A stretch of DNA of 64,000 bases from an uncultured Bdellovibrionales bacterium (GTDB lineage: Bacteria; Patescibacteriota; Minisyncoccia; Moranbacterales; GWC2-37-73). The position numbers and the translations under genes are program-made. The stretch lies in NCBI GenBank assembly GCA_964484505.1, contig CAZAFB010000003.1, positions 37,044 through 101,043 of the forward strand. The letters run 5' to 3'. The notes under the pieces were generated by a model, which saw only the letters and a list, made by a program, of their open reading frames with translations, ran no database searches and had not been told where the DNA came from. Below, in pieces: positions 28,285-36,086 of the stretch (position 1 is its first letter; each line of letters starts with the position of its first letter).

Positions 28285-29544
28285 TTGATCATGGAAAAGA
28301 TAAATCCCATAGTTGGCATAGATATAGGCTCTTCTTCAGTCCGCACCATAATTGCGGACATTGGTCGTGGTGATACTGATCCCAGGGTGATTGGTATCGG
28401 CATAGAATCTTCAGTGGGAATAAGGCGTGGCTCTGTGGTTGATGTTACTGAAGTGGTTAAGTGCATCAATGCTTCAGTGGAAGCAGCGGAAAGAATGGCA
28501 GGAATAGCCGTGGAAGACGCTTTGGTTAGCATAGGTGGTACAGGTATAGTCTTTCAATATGCCAAGGGCGTCGTGGCAGTGGCTAAGGCTGACGGGGAAG
28601 TAACGGAAGAAGATTTGAATAGGGCTATAAGTGAGGCGCAGGTTTTTCAAGTTCCTGCCAATAATGAAATATTGCATGTGATACCGCGTAGTTTCAGATT
28701 GGATGATCAGGATGGTATCAGGGATCCCGTGGGAATGAAAGGAGTGCGTCTGGAAGTGGATGCTTTGATAATCCAAAGCAATTCTTCCCAAATAAAGAAT
28801 CTTACCAAATGCGTGTATCAATCAGGCATAGAAATAGCCGACATGGTGCTTTCTCCTTTGGCAGCTTCTCGGGCAGTGCTGACCAAAAAACAAAAAGAAT
28901 TGGGAGTGGCTTTGGTTAATATTGGTGGCGGAACCACCTCGTTGGCCATATATGAGGAAGGTGATCTTTTACATACGACTATTCTCCCAGTTGGAGCGGG
29001 GCACATAACTAATGATATTGCTATTGGTTTGCGTACATCAATTGAAGTTGCTGAGCGTGTAAAATTGGAATTCGGCGCAGCTTGCCCGGATTATGTGGAT
29101 AAAAAAGAAGAAATTGACCTTTCATTGATTGATTCCGGGGAAGAGGGCGTGGTCTCGCGACATCATGTTTCTGAAATAATCGAGGCCAGGCTGGAAGAAC
29201 TTTTTGAACTGGTCCATGCCGAATTGCGCTCGGCCGGCAAAGCCGGGCTTCTTCCCGCGGGAATAGTGCTTACTGGCGGAGGGGCGAAGATGCCACATAT
29301 TGTGGAACTTGCCAAAGAAAAATTGAAATTACCCATGCAAGTCGGTTTTCCGCAGGGTTTGGGTGGAATTTTGGATAAAGTTGACGACCCATCTTTCACA
29401 ACCGCTGCCGGTCTTGTCCTTTGGGGAGCAGACCAGGGGTCTTCAAAACATGCGTCGCAATCCGGAATGACTAAAATGTTTTCTAAAAATGCCGGTGAAA
29501 CAATGGATACATTCAGGAAATTGATGAAAAAGTTCCTGCCCTGA
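28285..29544 (+). CDS. ftsA: Cell division protein FtsA
   Basis: Actin-fold ATPase, GIDIGSSSVR. Confidence 0.9.
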   Translation: MIMEKINPIVGIDIGSSSVRTIIADIGRGDTDPRVIGIGIESSVGIRRGSVVDVTEVVKCINASVEAAERMAGIAVEDALVSIGGTGIVFQYAKGVVAVAKADGEVTEEDLNRAISEAQVFQVPANNEILHVIPRSFRLDDQDGIRDPVGMKGVRLEVDALIIQSNSSQIKNLTKCVYQSGIEIADMVLSPLAASRAVLTKKQKELGVALVNIGGGTTSLAIYEEGDLLHTTILPVGAGHITNDIAIGLRTSIEVAERVKLEFGAACPDYVDKKEEIDLSLIDSGEEGVVSRHHVSEIIEARLEELFELVHAELRSAGKAGLLPAGIVLTGGGAKMPHIVELAKEKLKLPMQVGFPQGLGGILDKVDDPSFTTAAGLVLWGADQGSSKHASQSGMTKMFSKNAGETMDTFRKLMKKFLP

Positions 29545-29700
29545 GCGCGATTTACCTTATTTGACATGAGTATAGTTGACGTGATACATTTAGGTACTAG
29601 AGAAAAAAACAAAAACTTCCAAAAATAAAACAAAAATAGATGCAAAGAGTTTGCTAACTATTTTTCATATTGATCAGGAGAATTTTGATCAGGAAACCCT

Positions 29701-30957
29701 ATGGCTGAAATAAAACCAGACATTGAAACATTTGCACGCATAAAAGTAGTCGGAGTCGGAGGTTCTGGCGGTAATGCTTTGAGCCGGATGATCGATGCAA
29801 AGATAAAAGGAGTTGAATATGTGGCGATCAACACTGATGCGCAGGCTTTGCATCACTCCAAAGCTTCGGAAAAGGTACATATAGGCAAAAACCTAACCAA
29901 AGGATTGGGAGCAGGAATGAATCCGGAAGTGGGAAGGCAGGCTGCCGAAGAGAATCGTGAGGAAATTCAAGAAGTGCTCAAGGGAGCAGATATGGTTTTT
30001 GTAACTTGTGGTTTGGGTGGAGGAACGGGAACCGGAGCGGCTCCTGTGGTTGCTGAGACTGCTAAAGAGTTAGGTGCACTCACAGTGGCTGTTGTCACCA
30101 AGCCTTTTTCTTTTGAAGGAGCGCAAAGGCGTGCTATCGGTGAAGAAGGTTTGCAGAATCTCAAAGATCGCGTTGATACTTTGATTACAATTCCTAATGA
30201 CAAATTGCTTTCCATTATTGATCGCAAGACAACCTTAATCAGCGCTTTTCGCATCGTGGATGATATCCTAAGACAAGGTGTGCAGGGAATTTCTGATTTG
30301 ATCACAAAGCCCGGAATTGTTAATGTAGACTTTGCCGATGTTCGCGCAATTATGCAAGACAGTGGCTCGGCCCTCATGGGAATCGGCATTGCCAGTGGTG
30401 AAAGTCGTGCTTCCGAAGCTGCCAAAGCGGCAATTAATAGTCCACTTCTGGAACTTTCTGTTGATGGAGCGAAGGGAGTACTTTTCAATATTTCTGGTTC
30501 CAGTGATCTGACGATGTTGGAAATAAACGAAGCTGCCAATATTATCACTGAAAGCATTGATCCGAACGCAAAAGTTATTTTCGGTGCGGTTGTTGATGAT
30601 CAGGTTAAGAAAGGCGAGATTCATATCACGGTGGTGGCAACAGGCTTTGATGCCGAAAGGGAAGCAAGGAAAGAAAATCTTTTGGTAAATCGTGTTTCTC
30701 CGAAGTCGCAAGTTGCTCAGGTTCAGCAGCAGACATATACAGCTCCGGCCTATTCTGAAGAAAAGGTTCAGTCGGTTGCTGCAAAAGAGGAACTCGAAGA
30801 TAAAATAACTTTTCCAACCAAGAGAATACTTGAGCCGAAAATGATTATTGAAGAGAAGATTCAGCCTCGTCCGATTGCACCGGTCGCGCAGACTCAAGAA
30901 CCGGAAGAAGAGGAATTGGAAATCCCAGCATTTATTAGAAGAAAAATGCAGAAATAA
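29701..30957 (+). CDS. ftsZ: Cell division GTPase FtsZ
   Basis: Tubulin signature GGGTGTG. Confidence 0.95.
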
Positions 30958-30986
30958 CTTTCAACTTACAATTTACAATAAATGAC

Positions 30987-31010
30987 AAAAGCGGGGCATC
31001 CGCTTTTTTG
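30987..31010 (+). terminator. Rho-independent terminator after ftsZ
   Basis: AAAAGCGGGGCATCCGCTTTTTTG. Confidence 0.75.
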
Positions 31011-31137
31011 TTTGCTGCCTGCAGTGAACCCCTGTGGCTTGCTGTGCATAACTAAGCGCTTCTTTGATGAAATAGTTTGGTATATAATGTATTTGTGGTC
31101 TAAATAAAAATATTTAGAGAAAAATTAAACCAAAAAT

Positions 31138-33126
31138 ATGAAAATCAAAATTGTGTGCTTGGCTTTTGCTTTGGTGTTCTTCGCTACAGCAATAAATGCC
31201 GAGGAAATTTCCGATAGCACAAGCGAAAATGTCAAAGAAGGATATGTCGTGCCGGTAATCGTATCTTCTGCCAGTGCAGAAATGCAGGAAGGGAATATTG
31301 CTAAGATTAATTTTAGTGTCAAAAATAGTGGAAAGGAAGCGCAGCGTTTCAGATACAGCACAAATGTCTTGAATGTTAATGGCGATGGTGTTGAACTTTA
31401 TGATCAAAAAAAGTTTGACGAGTTAGTGTTTCTGTTTCCCGGAGAAAACAAAGATTTACAGTTTGAATATGCTTTTTCAGAAAAAGGAAAGCTTGGTAAT
31501 TCTTTTACAGTGAAGATCATTTTGGAAGACTCAAATGGAAAGATTTTGGATATGTATAATGCTGGTATCATTAATTGGGAACCAAAAGAAAAACAAGTCG
31601 TAACAAATAATTCCAATATTGAAAAGAAAGAATCAAGCCTAATGCAAAAGGCTTCGATTGCATTTATTTTTGTTACAGTATTTCTGATAATGTTAGTTTT
31701 ATTTTTGAGGAAAAAAATGGCAAACAGAGCCGCATTGTTCTTGTTTTTTGTCCTTTGCAGTATGCTTCATTTCCAAAAAGCTCAAGCAGTGACTGTAAGT
31801 AGCGGTAGCGGCAGCGTTACCTTTACCTCGTATACCAGGGCTGATGCTTGTCCCAACCCTGGTCCGTTTGTGTGTGTGGCCTCTGGAGTTACTTATAACA
31901 ACGGTCTTGATTATAACTACAGAACAACATCCACGGCCACCATTCCTGGTTATAAGAGGGGTCGTGCGGCAATATACATAGGAACCGAAGCTTCAATTAT
32001 TGACAGTGCAAATCCGATTAATGGAACATACTCGCCACCTACAAGCACTACGCAATTTATAAACAGTGAACCGCCAATTTCTTATTCGGTCACATTTAAT
32101 GGGCAAACCAAGACGGTATTTACAAATGCTACGGCAAGATTTGAATATTGTGGTTCAGGAGCATCCGGATGCGATAATCCCGTTTATTATAATTATGCTT
32201 CTTTTACTTTACCCGCATCTCCAGGTATATATAATGCAAGTTACACCGCTTCATATAATGGCAGGACCAGCAGCGGCACTTTTCCGATAGCCGTAGTTTC
32301 CGAACTTTCAGGAGCTTGTGATAATGGTCCGAATGGCCAAAATAGTGGGGTTCCAAAGTCTACAGCACCAACGTCCTTTTGCAGTTCTGGTTTTTATAAT
32401 AATGATCTTATTTCCAATGCAACCACTTGGAATTGGAGATGTTATGGAGGACTTTCAGTCAATGGCGCAACTGTTGATGCAAACAACCTAGGCGTTTTTG
32501 CAAACTGTAGCGCGAACAAGATCGTGTATAGTTGTACGGCAGGTGCCAGCACGGCAAATGCTGATCCTTGCACGGGTGATAATACAGGCCTTTCGGCCAA
32601 TACTCCGAACACTCTGGTTTCTGCTTGTGGCGTTCCTAAATGTGAATATACCTGTCGTTCAGGATTCACCCTTTATTCCGGAGCTTGCAGAAATATTTGT
32701 GGAAGTGCTAATGGAGGTACTTATTCAACGGCTCCCGCAACAAATCTTTGCGGAACAGGGAGCTCTATCATCGGTACGGTTACTGATTCTGGAACCAATT
32801 GGACTTGGACGTGTGCTGGAACAAGCGATGGCAGGATGAGAAATTGCAGTGCTATAAAAGGAGCTTGTGTTGTGAGCTATAGTGATTATCAGTGCACATA
32901 TAACGATTCAGTCGATTGTCTTGATGAGGCAAATTGTGAACAAACAAATCACAAAACCGTCAATGCATGTTCTGCCCAAAATAGTTGCACTTCTGGTTAT
33001 GATTTACTTACTCCTGCAGATTGCAACAATAACGGAGTCGCTTGTGCGAACAATGACCAAACATGTCCGGATTGTGCGCCAAGCGATCCCACGGGAGAAA
33101 ATGTTTATCGTGAAGTAGCACCATAG
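31138..33126 (+). CDS. Large Cys-rich surface protein, paralog A. Signal peptide, N-domain, TM helix, RKK, internal signal-peptide-like helix, then a Cys/Thr/Ser/Gly-rich C-domain.
   Basis: N-terminal Sec signal (AINA/EE). Mid-protein ASIAFIFVTVFLIMLVLFLRKK-MANRAALFLFFVLCSMLHFQKAQA. The C-domain carries repeated [ST]APxxxLC...TW[TN]WxC boxes and the conserved tail TCPDC...NVYREVAP. Confidence 0.6.
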   Translation: MKIKIVCLAFALVFFATAINAEEISDSTSENVKEGYVVPVIVSSASAEMQEGNIAKINFSVKNSGKEAQRFRYSTNVLNVNGDGVELYDQKKFDELVFLFPGENKDLQFEYAFSEKGKLGNSFTVKIILEDSNGKILDMYNAGIINWEPKEKQVVTNNSNIEKKESSLMQKASIAFIFVTVFLIMLVLFLRKKMANRAALFLFFVLCSMLHFQKAQAVTVSSGSGSVTFTSYTRADACPNPGPFVCVASGVTYNNGLDYNYRTTSTATIPGYKRGRAAIYIGTEASIIDSANPINGTYSPPTSTTQFINSEPPISYSVTFNGQTKTVFTNATARFEYCGSGASGCDNPVYYNYASFTLPASPGIYNASYTASYNGRTSSGTFPIAVVSELSGACDNGPNGQNSGVPKSTAPTSFCSSGFYNNDLISNATTWNWRCYGGLSVNGATVDANNLGVFANCSANKIVYSCTAGASTANADPCTGDNTGLSANTPNTLVSACGVPKCEYTCRSGFTLYSGACRNICGSANGGTYSTAPATNLCGTGSSIIGTVTDSGTNWTWTCAGTSDGRMRNCSAIKGACVVSYSDYQCTYNDSVDCLDEANCEQTNHKTVNACSAQNSCTSGYDLLTPADCNNNGVACANNDQTCPDCAPSDPTGENVYREVAP

Positions 33127-33156
33127 ATAAAACTGCACATAAAAATAGTCTACACA

Positions 33157-33190
33157 CAAAAGCGGGGTGACCCGCTTTTGTCGTCTTTTG
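33157..33190 (+). terminator. Rho-independent terminator
   Basis: AAAAGCGGGGTGACCCGCTTTTGTCGTCTTTTG. Confidence 0.65.
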
Positions 33191-33308
33191 CATGCAATGA
33201 ACCCTTGCGGTTTGCTGTGGATAACTCGTTAACTTTTTTTTCGCAGCCTTTTGTTGTATAATAAGCCTATAATAATAAAAAAATATTTATAAAAAATAAA
33301 CCAAAATT

Positions 33309-36086
33309 ATGAAAACAAAAATACTTTGGCTGGTTTTTGCTGCCGCTCTCTTTGTGGCACAAAACAATGTTTTGGCTGAAGAGAAACTTTCCGATGAACA
33401 AATCAGGGCCGACATGGAAGCTAAAATGAAGAATCAGTACGGAGACTTGGTGAAGCTGAACACTGACCAGCAGGGTCAAGCAACAAAAATAGCCTCGACA
33501 GATGTTTACAACGTCCAAATTTTGGAAAATAACGGGACGGAAGCTACTGTCGGTTTTGATGTCTACAATAAAGAAGGCATCCAATCCCAGATAAAATATG
33601 CTGCCAAATTATTTAAGGAAACGGAAAACAGCTCGCAGCTTGTTGATTTCAAAGTATATGACGAGTTGTTATCAGTTGGCAACGAGGAACAGATTCATAG
33701 AGAAATAAGGTATGAACTGCCTAATTATTTGAATGGTAAATTTAAATTGTATGTGGAATTGCAAAACAGTGAGGGCATGCTCCTTTCTCTTTCGCCGGCA
33801 GGTGATGTAGATTTGAAGCCTGCTAATGGGTACATTTCCATCGATGAAAGCAGTTGCTATCTTTTCATCGGAGAGGATAGCCAAAATAAATATAATCTTG
33901 TTCAGGGCGTAGACGTGGCTTCTTCCGAGAAACTCACATTGAATTGTGATATTGAGAACAAAGCCGGAGCTGAAAAAACCCTGACCCCAAATATCTCGTC
34001 ATATTACAGAAATATTTTTGGTGAAAAGAGATCTTCGGCTGATTTGGATAACATTATTCTTGAATCAGGCAAAAAAGTGGAAAAGCAGTTCGTCATTCCC
34101 AAGCCTGAAGCGCCCCAAGCTTATGATACTGTCCTTTCTTTGGTTGGCGAGGATGGGAAAATAGCCTCAAATAAAATTATTGTTCATTATGTGGTCCAGG
34201 GTCCCAGTGGAACTATTCAAAACATTATATTTGACAAAGACAAGTATCTCAAAGGAGAAGTTTCCAAGATAAATTTTGCATATTTTGACAGTGCTGACAG
34301 TTTCACTGGTTCTCGCGCTGGCACGGCGAATATAAAAGAAGCGGTTGCTTTTATAAAAATTGCTGACGGCTTTGGCAAGTCATGTGGAAAAATGGTTGAA
34401 AAAAACATTGAAAAAAGCAACGGACTCATCAGTGCAGATTATTCAATGGAAAAAGATTGCAATTACCCGCAAGCTGAAATAACGGTCAAGGATCCGGAAG
34501 GACGTGTTTTGGCGCAGACAATCTTTAAAATGAAAACAGATAACTTGGAGCATGAAAGTGAAGTGTCGAAACTGTCTGAAACGGTAGCCTCCAAGAAATT
34601 ATTGCTTATTGTTTTAATCATCTTGCTTGCAATATCTTTGGCGATAGTTTTCACAGTAAGATCAAGAAAAGCGAAGATAGCATCCCTCGCGTTGTTTCTA
34701 GCTGGAAATATGTTTTTATTGGGAGCAGGAAAAGCAAGTGCTGACAGCTACACGCTGAGCATGCATTATTATGTCTATGGCTATTCTTGTCCAGTTTCCG
34801 TTGAATGTCATAAGGCCCCAATAAATCTGTCTTCTCGCTTGGCTGCTGACCATATTAATTTCGGAAGTTGTACTTATACTGCGATACATGAATCCAATGA
34901 GACAATGAATGGAAGTTTTGTTGTGCCACCGACTGTTGCTCCCGGAGCTACTTTTCCTGTAACGGTTGGCTTATACAATCCTAAGTGCGTAAATACTGTT
35001 CCTGTGCAAGTCACTGTTGCCGGTTATGTGCCAAACGGATTCGGTAATTTTGACAAAGAAGTAACATTCTTCGGTACCAGCTGGGCTCAGCGAGCAGAGG
35101 ATGGACTTGTCATTGCAGGAGGAACTTCCGTCAGTAAAACGATCAACGCCATTGCACCGAATACCCCGGGTGATTACATTGTGAGATTTTATGTATTCGG
35201 TTCTCCTGATCCTGATAGTGTATATAATGCGTTTAAGAACTGTGGTGCTCATCCTCAATTGAGTGGGGCAATCAGTGCAACTGCTACAATAATAGATGTG
35301 AAATATAAAGTTGTTGTTCCTACTCCAGTAAATGGTGTTTGTGGATCATCTAACGGAGGATCATTTACTACGGCTCCAACAAGCGGACTTTGCAATACAA
35401 CCGCTACGACTCCAACAGTGGCAGATAGCGGTACTTCTTGGACATGGAAATGTACGGGAAGCGGAGGGGGAACAGATGCATCTTGTAGTGCAAGTAAATT
35501 AGCAGCTTCTTGCACCGGCTCCGTTCCGACAAACGCGGGTGCATATGATGCCGAAGAAAGCAGTGGCTTGGCTGTTAGTACCTCTTGGGCATATTCAGCT
35601 ACTGATACAGCGACAAAATGTCAATACAGGTGCACTGCCGGAAGTTGGATGGGTTCTTATTGCGGCTACAATTGCGGTGGGTCAATTCCGACCAATGGTC
35701 AATCATATGGCGCAACTGAGACCTCGAGCATATTTTCTCCAACTTCATGGTCTTATTCCGGATCGAACACTGCAACTAAATGCCAATTTTACTGTCAGGC
35801 AGGCACAAGCTGGGATGGTTCCGGTTGTGTAAATGGAAGTTGTACCTACAGCGGGCATACTTGTAGCTACAGCAATTCCGTAGATTGTTCAGACTCTGCT
35901 AATTGCGGACAAACCAACAATCAAACAGCATTTTGCTTGGCCGCAAACAGTTGCACGGGCAGCACGGATACGTTATCTGCAGCAGCTTGCACTGCCGCGG
36001 GAGTTTCATGTTCTGACAAAACTGAAACTTGTCCGGCATGCAGCGGAGGATCTGGTGATAATACGTATAGGGAAGTGCTGCCATAA
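33309..36086 (+). CDS. Large Cys-rich surface protein, paralog B, with the same domain grammar and a longer N-domain
   Basis: Signal peptide, about 440 aa N-domain, TM LLLIVLIILLAISLAIVFTV, RSRKAK, IASLALFLAGNMFLLGAGKASA, then a Cys-rich domain ending TCPACSGGSGDNTYREVLP. Shares the CGSxNGG...SGTxWTWxC box with paralog A. Confidence 0.6.
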   Translation: MKTKILWLVFAAALFVAQNNVLAEEKLSDEQIRADMEAKMKNQYGDLVKLNTDQQGQATKIASTDVYNVQILENNGTEATVGFDVYNKEGIQSQIKYAAKLFKETENSSQLVDFKVYDELLSVGNEEQIHREIRYELPNYLNGKFKLYVELQNSEGMLLSLSPAGDVDLKPANGYISIDESSCYLFIGEDSQNKYNLVQGVDVASSEKLTLNCDIENKAGAEKTLTPNISSYYRNIFGEKRSSADLDNIILESGKKVEKQFVIPKPEAPQAYDTVLSLVGEDGKIASNKIIVHYVVQGPSGTIQNIIFDKDKYLKGEVSKINFAYFDSADSFTGSRAGTANIKEAVAFIKIADGFGKSCGKMVEKNIEKSNGLISADYSMEKDCNYPQAEITVKDPEGRVLAQTIFKMKTDNLEHESEVSKLSETVASKKLLLIVLIILLAISLAIVFTVRSRKAKIASLALFLAGNMFLLGAGKASADSYTLSMHYYVYGYSCPVSVECHKAPINLSSRLAADHINFGSCTYTAIHESNETMNGSFVVPPTVAPGATFPVTVGLYNPKCVNTVPVQVTVAGYVPNGFGNFDKEVTFFGTSWAQRAEDGLVIAGGTSVSKTINAIAPNTPGDYIVRFYVFGSPDPDSVYNAFKNCGAHPQLSGAISATATIIDVKYKVVVPTPVNGVCGSSNGGSFTTAPTSGLCNTTATTPTVADSGTSWTWKCTGSGGGTDASCSASKLAASCTGSVPTNAGAYDAEESSGLAVSTSWAYSATDTATKCQYRCTAGSWMGSYCGYNCGGSIPTNGQSYGATETSSIFSPTSWSYSGSNTATKCQFYCQAGTSWDGSGCVNGSCTYSGHTCSYSNSVDCSDSANCGQTNNQTAFCLAANSCTGSTDTLSAAACTAAGVSCSDKTETCPACSGGSGDNTYREVLP

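Follow-up and report, generated by a model that had tools for sequence, protein, structure and literature searches.

The sortase motif LPXTG, which belongs to monoderm hosts, is a short conserved C-terminal signature on many unrelated Sec-exported surface proteins of one organism, and in Bacteroidota the C-terminal domain of the type IX secretion system (T9SS; Por_Secre_tail), which is β-rich, lineage-restricted and ~80 residues long, occupies the extreme C-terminus of diverse secreted proteins. EGF-like and Sushi/CCP domains, in turn, are extracellular units of 40–60 residues with four to six cysteines that occur in tandem. Bacteria of the Candidate Phyla Radiation (CPR; Patescibacteria) are mostly uncultured epibionts with an envelope thought to be monoderm, and their surface proteins, which are thought to mediate attachment to the host, are mostly annotated as 'hypothetical'. 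Here, we describe two tandem open reading frames (ORFs), A and B, in a 64,000-nucleotide stretch of the contig CAZAFB010000003.1 (the window). With moderate confidence, we regard A and B as fast-evolving paralogues on the surface of a Moranbacteria-type CPR bacterium, mosaic proteins which are assembled from small cysteine-rich modules and end in a hexapeptide, [W/Y/F]-x-E-V-x-P followed directly by the stop codon (the tag), that would link them to many otherwise unrelated proteins. The hexapeptide is the most interesting part of the finding.

Three modules are present in the C-terminal halves of A and B: the Cys-box, the KC[QE]YxC repeat and a 10-Cys C-terminal domain (CTD). They are like EGF-like and Sushi domains in size, cysteine number, tandem arrangement and predicted extracellular setting, and the KC[QE]YxC..G....G..C end of the repeat resembles the C-terminal part of both the EGF and the Sushi consensus; however, neither pattern accommodates the cysteine spacing of the Cys-box (C-x16-C-x19-C-x10-C with WxWxC). 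Neither model matches A or B, or any of 34 Cys-boxes, and the KC[QE]YxC repeat reaches sub-threshold scores only, seen on one relative, P0003 (Sushi, E = 0.0017 and 19.1 bits against a cut-off of 20.7; EGF_3, E = 0.22).

In its distribution the tag resembles the LPXTG, PEP-CTERM and T9SS CTD signals, an analogy in logic, not in sequence. Unlike sortase substrates, A and B have no LPXTG-like pentapeptide, hydrophobic segment or basic tail, each protein ending at the proline of the tag, and no sortase-signal model of NCBIfam matches them; a cognate transpeptidase has not been identified for the tag, and the window ORFs were not scanned for sortase. For PEP-CTERM, GlyGly-CTERM and PGF-CTERM there is likewise no transmembrane (TM) helix past the tag and no NCBIfam match. 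The CTD shares with the T9SS domain its β-rich character, its length and its terminal, lineage-restricted occurrence, but the latter belongs to another phylum, the host phylum here has no outer membrane or T9SS, and the CTD is Cys-knotted and rare (~28 clusters), the widely shared element being six residues only. Por_Secre_tail gave no Pfam or NCBIfam match at E ≤ 1 for A or B, and no consistent Pfam match in 29 CTDs.

Export and membrane topology

Both A and B have an N-terminal signal peptide and, internally, a pair of hydrophobic segments flanking a short basic loop; in A the first segment was detected computationally and the second (AALFLFFVLCSMLHF) was read off the sequence. This TM hairpin is predicted to leave both the N-domain and the Cys-rich C-terminal half facing outward. 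A and B are the only window ORFs that combine a signal peptide with a cysteine content of 3.4–4.5%, as compared with 0–2% for nearly all remaining window proteins. A disulfide-rich extracellular domain family had been proposed in the first-pass annotation of this DNA. Signal peptides, TM hairpin and high cysteine content uphold the extracellular part of that proposal, at the level of sequence-based prediction, and with it an exported, membrane-anchored topology. Disulfide bonding between the module cysteines is probable from their pattern, since the Cys-box has four cysteines, the CTD of A and B has ten, and one subtype of the KC[QE]YxC repeat has a cysteine pair that the other lacks.

The second TM segment resembles a signal peptide, and A and B might be read as artefactual fusions of two genes. 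We reject this reading because the uninterrupted architecture recurs in homologues, namely in the CTD carriers P0024, P0026–28, P0037 and P0040 and at the loci L024, L037 and L088.

Three cysteine-rich modules

In BLASTP comparisons the C-terminal ~290 residues of A and B are 32% identical (E = 6e-29), and their N-terminal domains align weakly (E = 1e-5). The first-pass annotation had recognized Cys-boxes and a C-terminal module in both paralogues and had treated them as one domain family. The modules are real, but they resolve into three independent units plus the hexapeptide: the Cys-box (two copies in A, one in B), the KC[QE]YxC repeat, which lies between Cys-boxes and CTD (once in A, twice in B) and had not been separated, and the CTD. 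The region also begins before position 32600, where it had been placed, as one of its own examples (APTSFCSSG...TWNWRC) is located upstream at 32365–32442. Of the 514 ORFs in the six frames of the window, only A and B are matched by hidden Markov models (HMMs) of Cys-box and CTD that were built solely from outside sequences, at E-values far beyond chance (Table 1). The suspicion that the family may be new is borne out by Pfam-A, NCBIfam, PDB sequences and a Foldseek search of the PDB, none of which holds a characterized match for the modules tested. We are highly confident of the description of modules and families, for which the modules, their distributions and the lack of a curated or solved relative are direct observations. 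The distributions differ: the Cys-box is widespread, the CTD is rare and of Moranbacteria type, and the tail is found throughout the Patescibacteria.

The Cys-box is a four-cysteine module of ~50 residues with the spacing C-x~16-C-x~19-C-x~10-C, which starts with CG and has a conserved proline before the second cysteine and a WxWxC motif (consensus CGSSNG.....APT.NLC..G.AS.V.GSGPW.WSC.G..GG..ASCSA; alignment invariants C1, G2, C18, W36, C38 and C49). WxWxC is absent from all window ORFs other than A and B. A search with the C-terminal 252 residues of B returned 20 proteins, each of them matched via the Cys-box alone, and many carriers have 2–4 tandem copies alongside CARDB, PKD, dockerin-like or pilin-like parts. 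CPR carriers include P0005, from an ACD aquifer genome, and P0013 (Moraniibacteriota); P0002 is not a CPR protein, since its contig has a GC content of 62.8% and encodes LysR and AraC regulators. The Cys-box is widespread in bacterial extracellular proteins and not specific to CPR. No Pfam-A or NCBIfam model matches the Cys-boxes of A, B and seven canonical carriers, the 34 individual Cys-boxes give only scattered single-member Pfam matches (all E > 0.01), and the PDB sequence profiles contain no relative. The AlphaFold2 (AF2) model is a small three-stranded sheet with a predicted local distance difference test (pLDDT) score of 67.8, for which Foldseek found nothing in the PDB below E = 1.

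A B-like protein of 1013 residues with a Cys-box and a WKEVAP end is encoded in a 43% GC stretch of L084 (OY762209.1), a 5.5 Mb record labelled Syntrophorhabdaceae. Its presence in a record not assigned to CPR could reflect a chimeric assembly, contamination or horizontal transfer.

The KC[QE]YxC repeat follows the pattern C.G..P.N...GL...(W.Y)...KC[QE][YF].C..G....G..C. It comes in a 6-Cys subtype, seen in A, and a 4-Cys subtype, seen in B, which differ by two cysteines that are jointly present or absent, and is found further in P0003, P0028 and P0037 and at L037, L052 and L106.

The CTD is shared by A and B, which are 48% identical over it with ten aligned cysteines, and measures ~80 residues plus the six-residue tail rather than the ~90 residues first assigned to the module. 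Nine of its cysteines are conserved and a further one, the first, is optional; the core reads NCG..N / NSCTG, and a CPxC motif is present. When 1.84 billion cluster representatives were searched exhaustively with HMMER, 30 matched at E ≤ 1e-3; of these, 28 are genuine, all of them at the extreme C-terminus, and two (P0032 and P0047) are repetitive junk. Word-indexed protein searches with a 2-sequence or a 29-sequence CTD alignment and a search of genome contigs for related loci with alignment A1 found no relatives, and the C-terminal 252 residues of B had no tblastn match in phage and plasmid collections. The 29-sequence alignment (consensus C..TYS.Y.C....S.DCS...NCG.TN..TA.C.A.NSCTG.TD..P.S.C...G..C...T..CP.C) has nine invariant or near-invariant cysteines, with the first one in 22 of 29 members. 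The domain is followed by a variable Gly/Ser/Pro-rich linker of 6–14 residues and by [W/Y/F/M]-x-E-V-x-P, in which E and P are invariant, and 27 of the 29 members end exactly at the proline. In the AF2 model based on this alignment (pLDDT 83.8) the β-rich core scores above 90 and the tail region 60–66, which suggests a flexible, exposed end. For this model, Foldseek returned no PDB structure with E < 1 and none whose TM-score exceeded 0.3, PDB sequence profiles gave no match, and family members match no Pfam-A or NCBIfam model, the Pfam matches of all 29 CTDs being scattered, single-member and at E > 0.01.

Besides the proteins with A/B architecture, CTD carriers include some with 'GWLWGGS...GVGWIS' repeats (P0034, P0039, P0041 and P0044) and some with 'CAANTC...GTK' repeats (P0029, P0036, P0042, P0045, P0048 and P0049). 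Members that carry a name are from Moranbacteria, and P0052, a cluster mate of the family, appears as 'hypothetical protein' or 'xylosidase/arabinosidase' in Candidatus Moranbacteria records. Judged by these sequences, the CTD is rare and appears restricted to Moranbacteria-type genomes.

The smallest CTD protein, P0043 (L006, 8001–8546; 181 residues), consists of a lipoprotein-like signal, one Cys-box and the CTD with a WKEVAP end. On its contig (L006, 1–16546; 35% GC) five radical-SAM genes and an HxsD-like gene immediately precede it and a pair of polyketide-synthase-like genes follows, an unusual neighborhood for a CPR-type protein.

A terminal hexapeptide on unrelated exported proteins

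The final residues are YREVAP in A and YREVLP in B, the only window ORFs with an end of the form [WYF]xE[VIL]xP. The tag also terminates P0003 and P0005. GNWQEVNP and ADWKEIKP were seen at the ends of two Cys-box proteins without the CTD, which led us to scan genomes for tag-encoding DNA. The scan for DNA encoding W[KR]EVAP-TAA in the GTDB collection, with one genome per species, gave at least 124 matches at no fewer than 120 loci, and at least 82 matches are ends of ORFs that either have 100 residues or more or are cut by the locus edge. Among the matches listed, to which the counts in this and the next paragraph refer, ~55 of 60 CPR-labelled loci (Woese-, Curtiss-, Gottesman-, Chisholm-, Moran- and Parcu-/Paceibacteria, Saccharibacteria and 'Patescibacteria group') hold the ends of long or locus-truncated ORFs. 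Where the label clearly names another taxon (Clostridia, Nonomuraea, Luteibacter, archaea and others), 24 of 28 loci have just 7–52 codons upstream, and these short-ORF matches are chance background.

Among tagged proteins that are complete and no shorter than 250 residues, 41 of 46 have a signal-peptide-like N-terminus, versus 76 of 276 other ORFs at the same loci, and the cysteine content of tagged proteins is 4.1% versus 0.94% in control ORFs. The CTD HMM matches just 2 of 82 tagged ORFs, both weakly. The domains that precede the tag comprise 'RDLG..N.TTPAExFEYAPD' (~29–40 proteins), assorted Cys knots (31), PKD-like domains (5), Cys-boxes and B-repeat-like domains. The commonest tagged family ('...RDLG..N.TTPAExFEYAPD..L.FP.....R..W[KR]EVAP', 500–1300 residues, with a signal peptide) matches no Pfam or NCBIfam model; its RDLG..PAExFEYAPD domain is β-helix-like.

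Relaxed variants (WKEIAP, WKEVQP, FREVAP, MREVAP, YKEVAP and WIEVAP) end 10 further Cys-rich ORFs in the fetched loci, and the relaxed pattern gave one chance match among the 1840 ORFs of at least 100 residues scanned there. Every synonymous codon is used for V, A, P, K/R and E of the tag, and the information content past the stop codon is near zero; free synonymous codons and unconserved downstream DNA mean that selection acts on the peptide. The terminal position of the tag and its conservation at the protein level are thus observed directly. Viral contigs contained no match to the DNA pattern of the tag, and a literature search on the tail motif, CPR sorting signals, Cys-rich CPR proteins and CPR sortases returned nothing relevant.

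A further 26 of the loci listed are labelled 'uncultured Gammaproteobacteria' or 'Bdellovibrionales' and share protein families with the CPR loci; such labels are attached to L014, L016, L018, L020, L021, L046, L052, L053, L063, L066, L074, L076, L082, L092, L093, L095, L097, L098, L106, L119, L120 and L127. GC content averages 43% over the listed loci that hold long tagged ORFs. These two labels are probably wrong for the tag-bearing assemblies. At L067 and L121 (Desulfurellales / Hippea), homologous long non-CPR proteins both end in ...GRDRVIEWKEVAP, either by coincidence or as an occurrence of the tag outside Patescibacteria. At L013, L031, L034, L051, L086, L087, L091 and L115, ORFs of 23–72 codons consist only of the C-terminal end of the RDLG..PAE family and the tag, sometimes twice per locus, and in the Woesebacteria-type loci L076 and L125 the full gene is followed, ~650 nt downstream, by the same 10-codon remnant, 'RFDCWREVAP'. 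Such fragments may be pseudogene remnants or cassettes.

Possible roles of the tag and the modules

In the explanation that we favor, the signal peptide would export A and B and the TM hairpin would hold them in the membrane with both halves outward. Their C-terminal halves would form a string of small Cys-stabilized modules, cross-linked by disulfides and probably serving as a rigid stalk or as binding (adhesion) units. The hexapeptide would be an independent, Patescibacteria-wide C-terminal tag on unrelated Sec-exported, Cys-rich proteins, with the 10-Cys CTD as one of its carriers. It might act as a sorting, retention or processing signal that is read in trans by a surface component, for which a surface receptor, a transpeptidase or a pilus tip are candidates. 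Reading in trans is suggested because the same six residues end many unrelated exported proteins across the phylum and, in CTD proteins, follow a flexible linker. We advance a role in sorting or retention as a tentative proposal. By analogy with the described C-terminal signals, and with a shade more caution, the hexapeptide could be an undescribed phylum-wide sorting or attachment signal that does without a membrane segment and marks the exported Cys-rich surface proteome.

Several points weigh against this explanation. The Cys-box model is of only moderate confidence; many CPR bacteria are anaerobic, and extracellular disulfide formation is not self-evident in them; and A and B are already membrane-anchored, which would perhaps make a retention tag superfluous. 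The genome scan was biased to one variant of the tag, and neighbor clustering of the scanned loci yielded housekeeping, prepilin and prepilin-peptidase-like genes only, and no partner or enzyme for the tag. The link of the tag to prepilin clusters is too weak for a mechanism to be assigned and involves one tagged family only, and the negative results from Pfam, NCBIfam, the PDB and the literature are no proof that the tag is undescribed.

The lack of a cognate enzyme among the neighbors would also be expected if the hexapeptide were a structural cap, that is, the last strand or plug of the preceding domain, or a carboxypeptidase-resistant proline end, and were not read by any machinery. Such a cap would suit the many Cys-rich ends in which the tag starts just 2–4 residues past the last cysteine, and the RDLG..PAE family, in which it is contiguous with the conserved C-terminal domain and no linker is obvious. 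The same hexapeptide, however, follows at least five unrelated kinds of final domain, and packing on each of them is implausible; behind the CTD, the variable linker and low pLDDT of the tail are what a free peptide would show; and the invariant E and P, together with the near-invariant V and aromatic residue, amount to more conservation than protection from proteases requires. We consider a cap unlikely, though it is the alternative to be taken most seriously. Another possibility is that the tag docks secreted proteins on type IV pili, for example by minor-pilin strand complementation in the manner of PilY1-type tip adhesins. Pili are the main surface appendage of CPR bacteria, and docking on them could display varied adhesins or enzymes. 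Like PilY1/PilC, the RDLG..PAE proteins are in some loci large non-pilin proteins with signal peptides beside prepilin clusters, and they may be pilus-associated adhesins: among the matches listed, prepilin-like genes adjoin the tagged gene of this family in 6 of ~30 loci (L021, L078, L090, L092, L117 and L119), in clusters of 5–7 in L021, L092, L117 and L119 and convergent to it in L021, L117 and L119, and five loci have a prepilin-peptidase-like neighbor (identified by sequence reading, with no family scan). Prepilin-like genes occur at 3 of 55 loci of other tagged proteins. However, CPR genomes are so rich in pilin genes that the background rate is high, the association was seen for a single family and sub-lineage only, and no resemblance of the RDLG..PAE proteins to PilY1/PilC in sequence or domains was found, none having been tested for. 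Prepilin-like ORFs are absent from the window, and A and B, unlike PilY1/PilC, are TM-anchored and next to ftsZ and could not ride a pilus unless cleaved. We regard docking on pili as improbable.

As for the cysteines, they might bind zinc or iron, in metal-stabilized knuckles or in redox or metal-binding units, instead of pairing as disulfides. The hosts are probably anaerobes, the CPxC motif is present, and individual members come near zinc-finger or zinc-ribbon models of Pfam (E 0.01–0.1). Zinc ribbons, however, need two CxxC motifs and each CTD has a single one; every near-match concerns 1 of 29 CTD members at E > 0.01; the proteins are extracytoplasmic, with four cysteines in the Cys-box and ten in the CTD of A and B; and the KC[QE]YxC subtypes gain or lose two cysteines jointly, as a disulfide pair would. 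Metal binding is, in our estimate, slightly more improbable still than docking on pili. The short fragments of the RDLG..PAE family, in which the last 25–70 codons and the tag stand by themselves, could finally suggest that the tail reflects a DNA or RNA element located where genes end, for example a recombination site, a motif linked to terminators or a mobile 3′ cassette. This origin is very improbable and was rejected on the codon variation described above, and variants such as YREVLP, FIEVSP and WKEIAP preserve the peptide pattern, not the DNA.

Whichever role the tag has, the locus provides definitions of three domains that can be reused and, in the terminal signature, a simple mark that seems to single out exported Cys-rich surface proteins in Woese-, Curtiss-, Gottesman-, Moran- and Parcu-/Paceibacteria as well as in Saccharibacteria. 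Should the tag serve in sorting or retention, a one-line rule would suffice to predict the CPR surface proteome, and the tag would point to hitherto unrecognized anchoring or display machinery in a monoderm phylum for which the literature search yielded no such signal. If it is merely a structural cap, the finding shrinks to new but ordinary domain families.

Genomic context and mosaicism

A and B lie on the + strand between ftsZ (29701–30957) and infA/rpsM/rpsK/rpsD/rpoA, and a terminator-like hairpin follows ftsZ (30987–31007) as a second one follows A (Table 1). The hairpin behind ftsZ speaks against co-transcription.

Table 1. Features of ORFs A and B, in window positions (aa, amino acids; iE, independent E-value)
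Feature	Position	Strand	Description
ORF A	31138–33126	+	662 aa; signal peptide, N-domain, TM hairpin, middle domain, Cys-box, KCEYxC repeat, Cys-box, CTD, tail
A: TM hairpin	31651–31785	+	aa ~172–216; two hydrophobic segments flanking RKKMANR
A: Cys-box copy 1	32317–32514	+	aa 394–459; degenerate, long insert ahead of fourth Cys; iE 5e-4
A: KCEYxC repeat, 6-Cys subtype	32533–32688	+	aa 466–517; iE 1.5e-15
A: Cys-box copy 2	32698–32853	+	aa 521–572; iE 7.7e-12
A: 10-Cys CTD	32866–33105	+	aa 577–656; HMM 8e-21
A: terminal hexapeptide YREVAP and stop codon	33106–33126	+	
Terminator-like hairpin 3′ of A	33156–33181	+	
ORF B	33309–36086	+	925 aa; plan as in A, N-terminal ectodomain longer
B: TM hairpin	34599–34742	+	aa ~431–478, around RSRKAK
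B: Cys-box	35340–35492	+	aa 678–728; iE 4.9e-15
B: two KCQ[YF]xC repeats, 4-Cys subtype	35511–35828	+	aa 735–785 and 789–840; iE 1.3e-19 and 8e-13
B: 10-Cys CTD	35841–36065	+	aa 845–919; HMM 3.5e-27
B: terminal hexapeptide YREVLP and stop codon	36066–36086	+	

The order ftsA–ftsZ–[B-like gene] is found at 28285–36086 of the window and in L003/L004, L007, L009 and L037, so that no fewer than five genomes of Moranbacteria type share it, the third gene encoding a protein with signal peptide, N-domain, TM hairpin and Cys-rich region. Across related loci the B-like proteins have diverged fast, being 30–38% identical as compared with 75–84% for FtsZ. This FtsZ identity marks the window as Moranbacteria-like; its FtsZ is 80% identical to that of Moranbacteria GW2011_GWE1_49_15 (L037). 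Tandem paralogues also occur in L008 and on the L068/L024 contig. P0051/P0022, from another sample, combines an A-like signal peptide and the exact last 20 residues of A with B-like repeats at 69% identity, a mixture that points to module shuffling and to recombination between the A and B types of paralogue.

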